From a virus (lineage: Duplodnaviria > Caudoviricetes), in the IMG/VR virus record IMGVR_UViG_3300006737_000032, positions 1-62,439 of that record: a stretch of 62,439 nucleotides of DNA, one strand, 5' to 3'. The notes below the pieces were generated by a model, which saw only the letters and a list, made by a program, of their open reading frames with translations, did no database searches and was not told the origin of the DNA. Below are positions 50,293-53,802 of the stretch, piece after piece; position 1 is the stretch's first letter, and each line of letters begins with the position of its first letter. The translations under genes were made by a program, and so were the position numbers.

Positions 50293-52413
50293 TCAACCGA
50301 TTACCTTATATCGCCTGAAAAACTTGCTCTCTGCAAAGTCTTTCTTTGGTTTTTGTTTTTGTTTTTGCGCAGCAAGAAGGCATAACCCAGAACTAATTGT
50401 AAGGTCAAACTTAGTTCTGTTGTCAATCCTAAAACCAATCCAGTCTTCTAGCGTTCTGTTGAAGTACATAGCGCCAAACTCACCAGTGTCTGCGTTAAAC
50501 CCAACGTGCTCGTGAATAAAAGCTTCAATAGCTTGAGCATGAGCTTGGATAACGTCTTGTGAATTAGACGGTATACCCTTTGTTTTTACCTTAGAAACGC
50601 CTGATGAAGATTTTAGGTGGGACGGTCTTCCTAGCAGGTAGCCATCGTAGCCCCTTTGTTCAAAATATCTGGCTATCCCATACTTGTTGTTCTCAATTAG
50701 GAGGGGGTATCCGTAAAACACAGCAGCCATCAAACAATCCTCATAGAAGATACTAGCAAGTGGTGGGCGAGACGCATACTCAACAACAAATATGTTGCAC
50801 GGATGGTGCATGTTGAATTTATTGTACAAATGCATGGCACCCTTGGAACCTCTTCCATCAACTGTGGCATCAAGATCATAGGAGTCAATACCGCCGACGC
50901 CTAGCCATGGATGCGGTGGGACCCTCTTTCCCCGCTCCAACTTTTCTTTGCTCCTTAGTTCGTCTGGCGGCATCCAAGCGACCCTAAACCTACCGTTAGG
51001 GTCAGGCTTAAATACAACCTTGGTATCTTTCTGGCCGTTTTGCCATACAAAGTTTCCTACAACAACTGGATTTGGATACAGCTCATCGTTGCTTTGGATC
51101 TGCTCATAGATCTTTGCAATATTAAAGGTACTGCCCTGAACGCTGTCTCTGAACGCTTCATCTTCTGTAAATGGGAACTGTCGGATAACCTCATTTAATT
51201 CAGTAGCGTTGTCCGTCAGGGCTTGACGCTCGTTCTTGAGGTACGTCCTAGCCCCCATGTATATGTCTTCGCCATCAAGACCTTCTGCAGTTTTGATTGG
51301 ATCATTCACAATCGGATTGCCATGCCTATCAAAAAAACCTTCTAGAGACTCAAACGCAGGAATAAACAATCTATACAGACCCGTCTTCGTTCTTCCATTC
51401 GCATTCCTCTCTATAGGATTCGAGTCCCTCCATAATTCTTTGTACTCTTTTCCGCCCTTGTCCATTGGATTTACCGTGCTTCCGACCAGGGCCTTTCCGA
51501 TTATTTTTCGCCCGACGATCAAACACGTCCGTTGAATCCTCCAGGCATCTCTTATGTCTGTAGGTCTTTCCCATTTTCCAGCCTCATCGAGGTACAAGAT
51601 ATGGAGCTTCTCTCCATCGTAAGCATTGTTTGTGGTGTTCTTCCAGTTGACTATCGTATTAAGAGCTTCGCCCGTTTGCGCAGTCTTATTCTTCTTCGTG
51701 ATTCTCTTACTTGGCTCGCGAAAAGCCAACTCCATGCGTGGGTTAGTGGTACCATCTTGAATGGGCTTGAAGAAAAAGGGGTAGTGGCGGAACATGTAGA
51801 CCACCTTCTTCATGAATATATTTTCTTGTGCGTCCTTACCAGTCTTTGACTGGATACCTAGGAGCTTATCTTTGACCTGCGTGGCTTCATCAAGAAGCAC
51901 AGCGGAGCAGATATTGGTGTACCCACTCCGCCTACACTTAGTGTACAGCTGTCCGATACAGCGGGGGTCCGCCTCACACGCAGCTAAATGTAAGAAAATA
52001 TCTCTTTGGAAACTCAAGAAGTTCGGATAACCTATGTCCATCCGAGTCCACTGAAGCATCATGTAGTGCCTGCCCGTAATATATGTAGGCTTACCGTCAT
52101 TGTAAAACCAAAAGCCGTTACGCCTACGGCTAAATTCCTTCTCGATATACGGAGAAAACTTTTGTCTGAACTCTCTCGGCGTTTCAGACCATTCGTCCAT
52201 ACTCTTAACCCTAGACAGCTCCTCTGGCATAGAAACCCTCTGCCACAGCTGCATGTCGTTTGGACGTCCATATCCTTCAATCTCCTCTTTGGGAGGCTGA
52301 GCGGGAAGTGCAATGAGTATATCACCGACCGAAATAATGTCTCCCGTTGTACCCTCGGGGCAAATTGAGATAACAGCCTCATCGTATTCTTGTATGTTTA
52401 GGAGTCCAGCCAT
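50293..52413 (-). CDS. terL: terminase large subunit
   Basis: KCRRSGYT Walker A-like, YLDEAGKW Walker B, VGST motif, nuclease GIDSYD, IENN, FDLTIS. Confidence 0.9.
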   Translation of the reverse strand: MAGLLNIQEYDEAVISICPEGTTGDIISVGDILIALPAQPPKEEIEGYGRPNDMQLWQRVSMPEELSRVKSMDEWSETPREFRQKFSPYIEKEFSRRRNGFWFYNDGKPTYITGRHYMMLQWTRMDIGYPNFLSFQRDIFLHLAACEADPRCIGQLYTKCRRSGYTNICSAVLLDEATQVKDKLLGIQSKTGKDAQENIFMKKVVYMFRHYPFFFKPIQDGTTNPRMELAFREPSKRITKKNKTAQTGEALNTIVNWKNTTNNAYDGEKLHILYLDEAGKWERPTDIRDAWRIQRTCLIVGRKIIGKALVGSTVNPMDKGGKEYKELWRDSNPIERNANGRTKTGLYRLFIPAFESLEGFFDRHGNPIVNDPIKTAEGLDGEDIYMGARTYLKNERQALTDNATELNEVIRQFPFTEDEAFRDSVQGSTFNIAKIYEQIQSNDELYPNPVVVGNFVWQNGQKDTKVVFKPDPNGRFRVAWMPPDELRSKEKLERGKRVPPHPWLGVGGIDSYDLDATVDGRGSKGAMHLYNKFNMHHPCNIFVVEYASRPPLASIFYEDCLMAAVFYGYPLLIENNKYGIARYFEQRGYDGYLLGRPSHLKSSSGVSKVKTKGIPSNSQDVIQAHAQAIEAFIHEHVGFNADTGEFGAMYFNRTLEDWIGFRIDNRTKFDLTISSGLCLLAAQKQKQKPKKDFAESKFFRRYKVIG

Positions 52414-52424
52414 GAATTAAATTG

Positions 52425-52498
52425 TGCGCCTGTCAGGACTCGAACCTGAAACCTGCGCATTAGAAGTGCGCTGCTCTATCCTGTTGAGCTACAGGCGC
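52425..52498 (-). tRNA. tRNA-Arg(TCT)
   Basis: Canonical cloverleaf: GCGCCTG/CAGGCGC acceptor, GCGCA-CTTCTAA-TGCGC anticodon arm, GGTTCGAGTCC T arm; no encoded CCA. Confidence 0.95.
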
Positions 52499-52508
52499 GT
52501 ATTAAAAA

Positions 52509-52516
52509 CAAAGATA
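52509..52516 (-). promoter_or_regulatory. Bacteroidota -7 promoter element TATCTTTG
   Basis: TAnnTTTG 10 nt upstream of tRNA-Arg. Confidence 0.55.
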
Positions 52517-52522
52517 ACAAAG

Positions 52523-52599
52523 TCCGCGAGGCGGGGCTTGAACCCGCGTGTAACCAACTACCCTTTCTACAAGGTATAAGCTTGAGGGGATACTCGCGG
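52523..52599 (-). ncRNA. non-canonical tRNA-like RNA, UAU (Ile) anticodon
   Basis: CCGCGAG/CTCGCGG acceptor, GCGGG-TTCAAGC-CCCGC T arm, CAAG-CTTATAC-CTTG anticodon arm, no conventional D arm. Confidence 0.75.
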
Positions 52600-52944
52600 T
52601 TATGAGTTGCGACGATTGTGAGTTTGTTTTCTGTGGCAGTTGGCGCAACGCACTTGGCACTTTCGAATCTCTTTCTTTATTGTGTCCATACCATAAGACT
52701 GGTTTACCATATCTGCAATGTTGTGAACTTTCTCACCGCACACATGATCAAACTCCAAGACAATTGGATCTGATTCTCCGCAATCGACACAAGAAAGTTT
52801 GCTTTTAATTCTTTGGATAAACTCTCGGGCCCACTTTCTTTGGTTCCTGTTTCTTCTTTTAGCCCTGACCTTATACTGCTCTTTGTACTTTTCGTAATGA
52901 GCAGCAGAAGCTTTTCTTTGATCTTCGCGGTCTTTGTAGGGCAT
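52600..52944 (-). CDS. HNH endonuclease
   Basis: CVDCG..LEFDHV..C.VRCANCHR. Confidence 0.85.
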   Translation of the reverse strand: MPYKDREDQRKASAAHYEKYKEQYKVRAKRRNRNQRKWAREFIQRIKSKLSCVDCGESDPIVLEFDHVCGEKVHNIADMVNQSYGMDTIKKEIRKCQVRCANCHRKQTHNRRNS

Positions 52945-53234
52945 TACTTCGAGAATCTTTCGGCAAATCCGCCTGAATAGTCTTTGGCTTCTTCTAACTC
53001 TCCATTGCTCTTTAGATCGTTGATCATTTGCTCAAGGCGCTGGCGCTCCACAAGCAGCTCTTTGCAATCAGTGGCCGTTTGCTTGATAGACTGTAGTTCA
53101 GCCTTTCGTGCGCTACCATTGATGTCTGGATCAACAGGCTTTTTGATTTCGTCGATCATGTTGTTGATAGCAGCCTCCATGGACGACATTAGCCTTCCAG
53201 CAGCCTCAATCGTTGTGAACTTCTTCTTCGACAT
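52944..53234 (-). CDS. hypothetical, terminase small subunit candidate
   Basis: 96-aa helical protein upstream of terL; GFAERFSK tail; function inferred from position only. Confidence 0.5.
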   Translation of the reverse strand: MSKKKFTTIEAAGRLMSSMEAAINNMIDEIKKPVDPDINGSARKAELQSIKQTATDCKELLVERQRLEQMINDLKSNGELEEAKDYSGGFAERFSK

Positions 53235-53802
53235 ACATTAGGTCTTCGACACGGGTGCGGTAGTATTCCGTTCCGTCAATCTTGATACGATAGTCTCTGT
53301 TTTCCTTGAAACAAACGACGTCGCCTTTCTTTACGCCAATAGCCTTCAAATGTTTCGAGTCAAAGGCAACCTTGCCCTTTGTTGGAAGCTTTTCTTTGAG
53401 CGATACGATTTGGACTTCTGTCTCTTCCTTTTCTTCTTCAACAGGAAGCAACAGACTCCAGCCATCAAGTGGGGTAATCTTACCCTTCTTATTCTTATAG
53501 GCAATCGCCTGATTGTTTACTGCGTGCTCTGGATCAAACTTTACAAAGTAACTGTCATCTATGCCCGTAAGCTTTTGTCCGCCCTGCATAACAACAAGGT
53601 GATGAAAGTACAGCGTATCTCCAACCTTTACAGGTGTCTTATACTTGGCTGGCGTAGCGATGACGGGACCGTCGGTTACCCGATTATTAAACTCACCCAT
53701 TTCAAATCGGGTGTCAATAAACAGTTCAACACCACCTTTCGTGGTGATTGTATCGTTGATGGGTTTGTCCAGCTCAACGATAAACATATTTAGCGACCTC
53801 AT
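53206..53802 (-). CDS. GroES-like co-chaperonin (tandem domains)
   Basis: TKGGVELF..GPVIA..VKVGDTLYF, then GKV..GVKKGDVVCF..EYYRTRVEDL. Confidence 0.65.
   Translation of the reverse strand: MRSLNMFIVELDKPINDTITTKGGVELFIDTRFEMGEFNNRVTDGPVIATPAKYKTPVKVGDTLYFHHLVVMQGGQKLTGIDDSYFVKFDPEHAVNNQAIAYKNKKGKITPLDGWSLLLPVEEEKEETEVQIVSLKEKLPTKGKVAFDSKHLKAIGVKKGDVVCFKENRDYRIKIDGTEYYRTRVEDLMYVEEEVHND

Follow-up and report, generated by a model that had tools for sequence, protein, structure and literature searches.

What kind of RNA carries the outer parts of a tRNA around a middle whose parts stand in a different order? The question is raised by a 77-nt element on the minus strand (52599..52523) of IMGVR_UViG_3300006737_000032, a complete 62,439-base IMG/VR virus record of phage source, the whole of which was analysed and is referred to here as the window. 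From 5' to 3', the element runs CCGCGAG UA UCCCCU CAAG-CUUAUAC-CUUG UAGAAA GGG U AGUUGGUUA CAC GCGGG-UUCAAGC-CCCGC CUCGCGG A. The initial annotation of this DNA had listed a 7-bp acceptor stem, U8-A9, a T arm, a discriminator A, a hairpin with a UAU anticodon and a D-loop-like strand 3' of the anticodon, and all of these are present in the minus-strand sequence. The features of the locus are given below in the order of the RNA; counts refer to the 142-sequence alignment described in the next section.

52600..52944, minus strand: HNH endonuclease ORF, its stop codon abutting the 5' end of the element (PHROG 2255 "HNH endonuclease", E 2.3e-26)
52593..52599, minus strand: acceptor stem 5' strand CCGCGAG, RNA positions 1-7, which pairs with 52524-52530
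52591..52592, minus strand: U8 A9 connector (142/142 aligned sequences, an invariance imposed by the search motif for most of them)
52587..52590, minus strand: U10 and the enclosing-stem 5' strand C11 C12 C13 (11:39, 12:38 and 13:37 paired in 100% of cells)
52570..52584, minus strand: anticodon hairpin CAAG-CUUAUAC-CUUG, positions 16-30, with the anticodon UAU at 52578..52576
52564..52569, minus strand: linker UAGAAA, positions 31-36, with the probable role of joining the anticodon stem to the enclosing-stem 3' strand
52560..52563, minus strand: enclosing-stem 3' strand G37 G38 G39, which covaries with its partner strand, and U40 (U10/U40 is U/U in 142/142)
52548..52559, minus strand: D-loop-like strand A41 G42 UU G45 G46 UU A49 C50 A51 C52 (42:52 covariation, conserved GG)
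52531..52547, minus strand: T arm GCGGG-UUCAAGC-CCCGC, positions 53-69 (loop UUCRANY conserved)
52523..52530, minus strand: acceptor stem 3' strand, positions 70-76, and discriminator A77, the strand pairing with 52593..52599
52424..52498, minus strand: canonical tRNA-Arg(UCU), 24 nt downstream of the element (ARAGORN; Rfam RF00005, 71.8 bits)
50293..52413, minus strand: large terminase (TerL) gene, downstream of both tRNA genes (tblastn)

We consider it likely that the element works as an elongator tRNA-Ile(UAU), with a permuted core and with AUA as its codon, and that it belongs to a phage-borne family in which Ile and Arg tRNAs are rewired. As far as our searches reach, this family is widespread in phages and, within the literature searched, undescribed. 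The initial annotation did not foresee that the element belongs to a large Ile/Arg family.

Fold and covariation

The element has two limbs. The first consists of a 7-bp acceptor stem with an unpaired discriminator and a T arm with a 5-bp stem, and all 12 of these pairs covary; in the T loop, U58, U59, C60 and A62 are conserved across the family alignment. The second limb is a single uninterrupted hairpin: its anticodon arm is enclosed by a 3-bp stem (11-13/37-39), and a 12-nt strand with the usual D-loop signatures connects the enclosing stem to the T stem. The anticodon hairpin has a 7-nt loop and a stem of only 4 Watson-Crick pairs plus U15/U31, compared with the standard 5 bp. Its loop has the expected tRNA residues: among the matches listed, A37 (canonical numbering) is found in 176/176 distinct members and U33 in 174/176. 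The window's element does not encode CCA, and the bases after A77 are CUU.

To evaluate the rewired fold across the family, we aligned the window's element with 141 members, a set obtained from 176 distinct sequences by removing each one that differed at 3 or fewer positions from a sequence already kept. Standard pairs fill 97.5% of the 2,840 cells in this alignment, compared with a mean of 64.6% in shuffles (0/500 as high) and 39-46% when the partners were slid by 1-3 columns, and both sides change in 18 of the 20 pairs. These values depend in part on how the sequences were found. Family membership required at least 10 of the 12 acceptor and T-stem pairs, so the pairing of the acceptor stem (96.1% of cells, all 7 pairs covarying) and of the T stem (98% of cells, 5/5 covarying) is partly guaranteed, and the invariance of the core was mostly imposed by the search motif. 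The anticodon hairpin is paired in 100% of cells with all four pairs covarying, though the motif left its 15 positions free.

The stem that encloses the anticodon arm had been proposed to form between CCCU and AGGG. A stem exists there and covaries, as proposed, but the proposed register was wrong: the pairs are 11:39, 12:38 and 13:37 (CCC/GGG). This register is favoured because 12:38 (C/U with G/A) covaries, with U-A in 82, C-G in 57, U-G in 3 and C-A in 0 of the 142 sequences, whereas the earlier register would set C13 opposite A38 in most sequences. The motif permitted all four Y/R combinations at 12:38, and this covariation is therefore not present by construction.

Further covariation lies in the D-loop-like strand. 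Positions 42 and 52 covary in the manner of R15:Y48 (A-U 91, G-C 31, G-G 15, A-C 4, U-G 1; n=142), U8 with A41 is U/A in 142/142 (within the core that the motif mostly fixed), and GG at 45-46 stands opposite T-loop UC in 138/142. In the sequences with UGC in the T loop, 4/4 have AG in place of GG, which amounts to an 18:55-like covariation. These AG and UGC variants (L211, L280, L316 and L317) carry three anticodons (CCU twice, CAU and GAU) and may represent a lineage-specific variant of the elbow contact.

From this covariation we infer a mapping to canonical tRNA in which G37-U40 correspond to canonical 10-13, A41-A49 to 14-21, C50-Y52 to 46-48, U10-C13 to 22-25 and C14 to 26. With this mapping, the D stem and the U8:A14, R15:Y48 and G18G19:T-loop contacts would be retained, and hence the L-shape. 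Three backbone joins would be unlike those of the cloverleaf, namely 9 to 22, 44/45 to 10 and 21 to 46, and the stack of D stem on anticodon stem would be a single continuous hairpin closed via the UAGAAA linker. This linker is U-W-GAAA in the main subfamily, where it was fixed by the motif, and is replaced in divergent subfamilies by linkers of 2-8 nt, as parsed by eye. The idea that the element is a tRNA with a reordered middle, in which an L-shape is possible, thus gains backing from the 12:38 and 42:52 covariation, the GG, the 18:55-like covariation, and the position-20 and discriminator bases that track the anticodon (see below).

The detectors tried do not see this fold. Over the whole window, ARAGORN reported one gene, tRNA-Arg(tct) at 52424-52498, and missed the rewired element; in Rfam at the gathering threshold, the same tRNA-Arg was the sole match, with nothing over the element. 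When the Rfam search was relaxed to E<=10 for 52350-52700, it returned 5 matches, with no tRNA (RF00005) match over the element. The pieces touching it were a 7.8-bit fragment of the tmRNA T arm (gathering 47) and a 20.8-bit YrlA fragment that extends into tRNA-Arg (gathering 69), and a tmRNA or YrlA tRNA-like domain was rejected on these partial matches. A poor score or a miss is what had been expected of this element. The same blindness extends to the family, since ARAGORN yields nothing for 140/141 members given with 30-nt flanks. A covariance model built for the family separates main-family members, at 65 bits or more, from canonical tRNAs, at about 17-27 bits.

Two other folds were considered for the element. 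The single-sequence minimum free energy fold has -28.7 kcal/mol, a modest improvement on shuffles (z -2.77, 1/200 as good), and it was rejected on the family alignment, where its two middle helices pair in just 75.0% and 61.3% of cells. The canonical cloverleaf of RF00005 does not describe the element either: the enclosing stem wraps the anticodon hairpin, and there is no D hairpin 5' of it and no four-way junction. An ordinary cloverleaf, an Rfam match and a lack of covariation in the enclosing stem had each been named beforehand as grounds for abandoning the rewired reading; none of the three occurred, and the enclosing stem moved by one register.

The terminase locus

We used the TerL protein as a query and obtained 80 related viral loci with 76-81% amino-acid identity. 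The full 77-nt element is found in 28 of these at 88-92% identity, as 14 distinct sequences. Compensatory changes among these relatives turn G5-C72 into A-U, C2-G75 into G-C, C54-G68 into U-A and C12-G38 into U-A, and the anticodon hairpin is invariant in all 28. The element is not a relic, and it is beyond chance, because it is conserved at full length in these 28 loci and in hundreds of other viral contigs.

A canonical tRNA-Ile(UAU) takes the position upstream of tRNA-Arg(UCU) in a further 16 of the 80 relatives (ARAGORN); both forms occur together in 0/80. This canonical tRNA is like the element in its slot upstream of tRNA-Arg(UCU), its length (75-77 nt), its 7-bp acceptor, discriminator A, anticodon loop CUUAUAC and D-loop sequence AGUUGGUUA, and its T arm (GCGGG-UUCAAGY-CCCGC). 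What differs is the order of the parts. The canonical form has the D 5' strand, D loop, D 3' strand, anticodon arm and variable loop, whereas the rewired form has the stem 5' strand, anticodon arm, linker, stem 3' strand and D-like loop. The rewired form also has a three-way rather than a four-way junction and a 4-bp anticodon stem, and it goes undetected by ARAGORN and RF00005. In a TerL tree, which came from a quick IQ-TREE run and in which the window's own branch is long, the canonical and rewired states interleave: parsimony gives 12 changes for the rewired state, and the starred branches force at least 7. As one example, the canonical locus L062 is sister to the rewired loci L019 and L020 with 99% support.

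Across the 51 long ORFs of the window, 18% of the Ile codons are AUA, which speaks for a tRNA that reads this codon, and 44% of the Arg codons are AGA. Among the related loci, the AUA share of Ile codons in TerL is 0.236 where the rewired form is present (n=28), 0.318 where the canonical form is present (n=16) and 0.398 in tRNA-less loci (n=26); the difference between rewired- and canonical-bearing loci (Mann-Whitney p 0.004) ignores kinship and is confounded by a GC content that differs between the groups. Simple codon supply is unsupported by this comparison, because AUA use falls rather than rises with the rewired tRNA.

The genes on either side of the tRNAs belong to a phage packaging region. 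By tblastn, TerL is 39-47% identical to large terminases annotated in Flavobacterium phages and in an uncultured Caudoviricetes record, with Cellulophaga phages among the records matched; Pfam gave no match for the HNH ORF or TerL. HNH homologues lie upstream of TerL in 29/80 relatives, with or without tRNAs, and therefore the tRNAs fill a slot between two conserved packaging-region genes. The HNH itself looks like a packaging-region HNH around which the tRNAs have been inserted. We also considered that HNH and tRNA travel as one cassette, and dropped this because the HNH beside the rewired tRNA of phage Bas93 is unrelated (BLASTP E 0.095) and the window's type of HNH precedes TerL in relatives with and without tRNAs. 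In L042, L044 and L045, the HNH gene stands between the rewired tRNA and tRNA-Arg. Promoter and terminator signals scanned for in 52200-53400 were no more numerous than in shuffles, and none near the element on the minus strand was usable. A 198-aa ORF (53206-53802, minus strand) carries a Cpn10 (GroES-like) domain towards its C-terminus (Pfam PF00166, E 4.5e-7).

A phage-borne family and its probable function

Beyond the terminase locus, an invariant 19-mer of the element occurs in at least 118 viral stretches, in at least 139 copies and at least 59 distinct 77-mers, whose acceptor and T stems show many compensatory changes. From cultured-phage homologues we derived a family motif, UAUCYCCY-N15-UWGAAAGRGUA, which leaves the hairpin free. 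A scan of viral sequence for members in which position 34 is not U gave at least 120 stretches, with the anticodons GAU, CCU, CAU and ACG; U34 with a non-A35 gave 24 stretches and 21 members (UCU 19, UCG 2). Scans of the remaining anticodon classes gave 2, 1, 1 and 5 stretches, comprising one atypical UAC copy and otherwise non-tRNA sequence. The family total is at least 306 copies, at least 176 of them distinct, in viral and genome contigs. Among the 176 distinct matches listed, the anticodons are TAT (74), GAT (57), TCT (16), CCT (16), CAT (9), ACG (3) and TCG (1). The classes among the matches listed are Ile (UAU, GAU), CAU (Ile or Met) and Arg (UCU, CCU, ACG, UCG), apart from the one atypical UAC. 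The UAC copy, found with the same sequence on two contigs (L404 and L405), has the loop CUUACUG with no purine at 37, no GG and the T loop CUCAAUC, and is probably decaying, the alternative being a rare member of Val type.

When the same motif was run over 185,579 prokaryote species, each represented by one genome, it gave 50 stretches, of which 49 were evaluated and 21 held members, mostly on contigs of metagenome-assembled genomes. With these 21 set against more than 260 in viral contigs, the family is concentrated in viral sequence. Motif matches that were not tRNAs were excluded throughout: 7/271 in the viral scans, 3/24 in the scan for U34 with non-A35 and 28/49 in the prokaryote genomes, besides those in the scans of the remaining classes. 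One conserved sequence on five contigs (L218, L223, L234, L310 and L407) matches both core motifs without a T arm or acceptor pairing; it is probably unrelated to the family and perhaps coding. The 293 loci that hold members also contain 1974 canonical tRNAs (ARAGORN), which makes them phage tRNA clusters. The 176 distinct sequences show clear purifying selection.

If these RNAs are tRNAs, their synthetase identity elements should change with the anticodon. Among the distinct members in the matches listed, 36/36 Arg types have A directly after GG, at the equivalent of position 20, and 130/131 Ile types have U there; as discriminator, 131/131 Ile types have A, and Arg types have G (20), A (13) or U (3). 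According to Table 1 of PMC9976931, the bacterial Arg identity set is A20, C35, U/G36 and A/G73 or U73, and the bacterial Ile determinants include A73, C4-G69, A35, U36 and A37; the position-20 and discriminator bases of the family match these ArgRS and IleRS sets. The window's element has A77 and C4-G73, the latter being the equivalent of the Ile determinant C4-G69, and the E. coli IleRS determinants U12-A23 and C29-G41 given in the same paper are without an obvious counterpart in the element. CCA is encoded in 23/141 distinct members. The eight commonest 3-nt tails after the discriminator all start with C (125/141 distinct members, the 23 with full CCA among them). Judged by these sequence features, the family RNAs look charged.

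Altogether, we favour a working tRNA. By this explanation, the element would share a transcript with the adjacent tRNA-Arg, RNase P and a 3' nuclease would trim it, and the host would add its CCA and charge it by means of IleRS. It would then read AUA through U34 without a need for lysidine; by established knowledge, the UAU anticodon would make it independent of TilS, as the initial annotation had suggested. Should charging and decoding hold, the tRNA L-shape can be built in nature by another backbone path, which has so far been seen mainly in engineered molecules and, in reduced form, in mitochondria.

How does this fold compare with the unusual tRNAs already known? We found no description of it in the literature, subscription journals and supplementary files lying outside the reach of the search, nor in the available parts of PMC7609411 and PMC13092985; the words "phage" and "virus" are absent from the part of PMC7609411, a 2020 review of non-canonical tRNAs, that could be consulted. 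D-armless mitochondrial tRNAs are shortened and have lost the elbow between G18G19 and the T loop. In them, according to PMC7609411, a flexible connector replaces the D arm, and like the element they have no D hairpin and place the acceptor, anticodon limb and T arm at a three-way junction (e.g., nematode mt-tRNA-Ser(UCU)). The phage form differs in being full length, with a D-stem-like helix, U8, residues like A14, R15:Y48 and G18G19, and a standard T loop, and it comes from phages and not from an organelle. The element was therefore not placed in the D-armless class, given the GG, the 18:55-like covariation and the 12-nt D-like strand that it retains and its phage source.

In permuted tRNA genes of Cyanidioschyzon merolae, processing restores the canonical tRNA. 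The 3' half of these genes lies upstream of the 5' half, as described in PMC3728597, so that they share with the element an order of tRNA parts that departs from the mature canonical one. In the element, however, the acceptor 5' and 3' strands end the 77-nt unit in normal order, with no sign of cutting and rejoining, and it does not belong to the class of permuted (split-order) genes; its internal permutation presumably persists in the mature RNA. The tRNA-Sec and allo-tRNAs, which have 8/4 or 9/3 acceptor/T stems (PMC7609411), are likewise natural departures from the 7/5 cloverleaf that are active or may be active. These alter helix lengths and keep the order of the arms, whereas the rewired family keeps the 7/5 lengths and alters the connectivity.

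Why would a phage carry such a tRNA, when a canonical one fits the same slot? The favoured explanation can be extended: rewiring of a working tRNA may have been selected for escape from a factor, either a host defence or the phage's own weapon, whose targets are Ile and Arg tRNAs recognised by their canonical D arm or hinge. Such an origin would fit the viral enrichment of the family (21 members in the genomes of 185,579 prokaryote species vs more than 260 in viral contigs), its restriction, among the matches listed, to Ile and Arg with CAU ambiguous, and the repeated swaps between canonical and rewired forms, which are expected under alternating selection. We nonetheless regard it as rather unlikely, as no nuclease or defence gene was linked to the element in this analysis, our searches found no literature on Ile/Arg-directed anti-phage tRNases, and many member-bearing loci also have canonical Arg (183/293) or Ile (55/293) tRNAs. 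Member phages include those of Flavobacteriia-type marine hosts, Streptomyces, Rhodococcus, E. coli and Salmonella, as well as crAss-like phages. In its widest form, the extension would have phages of very different hosts share charged, ribosome-active, internally permuted Ile and Arg tRNAs, selected as invisible to a factor (a tRNase, modification enzyme or toxin) that reads the canonical D arm or hinge, and sustaining phage translation when the cell's Ile and Arg tRNAs are disabled. We offer this as a tentative idea that is more probably wrong than right. If these RNAs are charged and active in decoding, the Ile/Arg restriction and the repeated allele swaps give a concrete handle on a possible arms race centred on tRNA.

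The initial annotation had also raised the possibilities of a nuclease-resistant tRNA and of a decoy; in the latter, the element would be a tRNA mimic acting outside translation, as a sponge for a host nuclease that targets tRNAs or for another tRNA-binding defence protein, and a poor cleavage substrate presenting an Ile anticodon loop. Several observations are compatible with such a mimic: the unusual fold, the anticodon hairpin that is invariant among close relatives, the presence, among the matches listed, of two amino-acid identities only, which would fit a specific attacker, and the use of AUA, which is no higher where the element is present. A decoy, however, has no need for position-20 and discriminator bases that switch with the anticodon as ArgRS and IleRS require, nor for a conserved 7-bp acceptor stem. 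The element also alternates with canonical tRNA-Ile(UAU) at the same slot and never joins it, and we found no literature on anti-phage cleavage of tRNA-Ile or tRNA-Arg. The decoy is disfavoured because the synthetase identity elements track the anticodon and a canonical allele swaps in at the same locus, and we judge it to be quite improbable.

Cultured phages, annotation and implications

In cultured phages, blastn with the 77 nt found homologues that carry no annotation: in Streptomyces phages with GAU, and with UAU in Rhodococcus phage Peregrin, bajarodcaudo virus 1 and a crAss-like phage. A GAU query matched 81 records, 77 of them Streptomyces phages, and 78 cover at least 80% of the query. 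With a UCU query, 36 records were matched, from 24 E. coli, 4 Salmonella and 8 Streptomyces phages, including 121Q, PBECO4 and Bas93. Most of the cultured-phage records listed have no annotation at the site, and a few have a protein-coding gene over it. The copy in 121Q encodes CCA.

Two members do carry a tRNA label in GenBank, as tRNA-Leu(taa): 121Q gene 124 (L394 1196-1277) and EGole gene 108 (L396 801-877). By the structure of the family, 121Q gene 124 is a putative tRNA-Arg(UCU) and EGole gene 108 a putative tRNA-Ile(GAU). The Leu reading was rejected, as its TAA falls in the linker or D-like strand, a part whose sequence differs among members, and the window's element has no such TAA; the labels therefore indicate that some pipeline forced a cloverleaf onto these members. 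That the element is itself an ordinary cloverleaf tRNA or a decayed pseudogene, merely scored badly by detectors, is barely credible: these two labels speak for it, whereas no local D hairpin is possible, the "anticodon" TAA lies where it does, ARAGORN misses 140/141 members, covariation favours the rewired fold and purifying selection clearly acts on the 176 distinct sequences.

Provided that these RNAs are charged and decode, inventories of phage tRNAs and analyses of codon supply may undercount Ile and Arg tRNAs, because ARAGORN misses nearly all members and most cultured-phage records are unannotated at the site. This possible undercount covers at least 78 full-length matches in cultured phages, mostly Streptomyces phages, and about 28 records from E. 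coli and Salmonella phages. The members in the E. coli phages 121Q, PBECO4 and Bas93 make the proposed functions directly testable. If a working rewired tRNA is the right explanation, the family would also be a ready-made and possibly orthogonal scaffold for tRNA engineering.

The family extends beyond the main motif. Nine covariance-model matches, scoring 29-60 bits, are also rewired tRNAs but differ in their stem sequences and linkers, as parsed by eye; their anticodons are UAU (four), UCU (two), GAU, UCG and ACG. Phage LilMartin has a second copy, with the anticodon UCU and a linker of 2 nt. In L260 and L297, several rewired tRNAs from different subfamilies (UAU, UCG, ACG, GAU, UCU and a main-family CAU) stand next to each other within single tRNA clusters, and two of the rewired tRNAs in these clusters are about 90 nt long. 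In LilMartin, gp104 (L196 957-1478), annotated as a nucleotidyltransferase, lies directly upstream of the rewired tRNA-Ile(GAU), and the gene order is the same in EGole. This protein has a sub-threshold match to Pfam RlaP, a pol-beta family of RNA-repair pathways, at 22.3 bits with a cut-off of 23.
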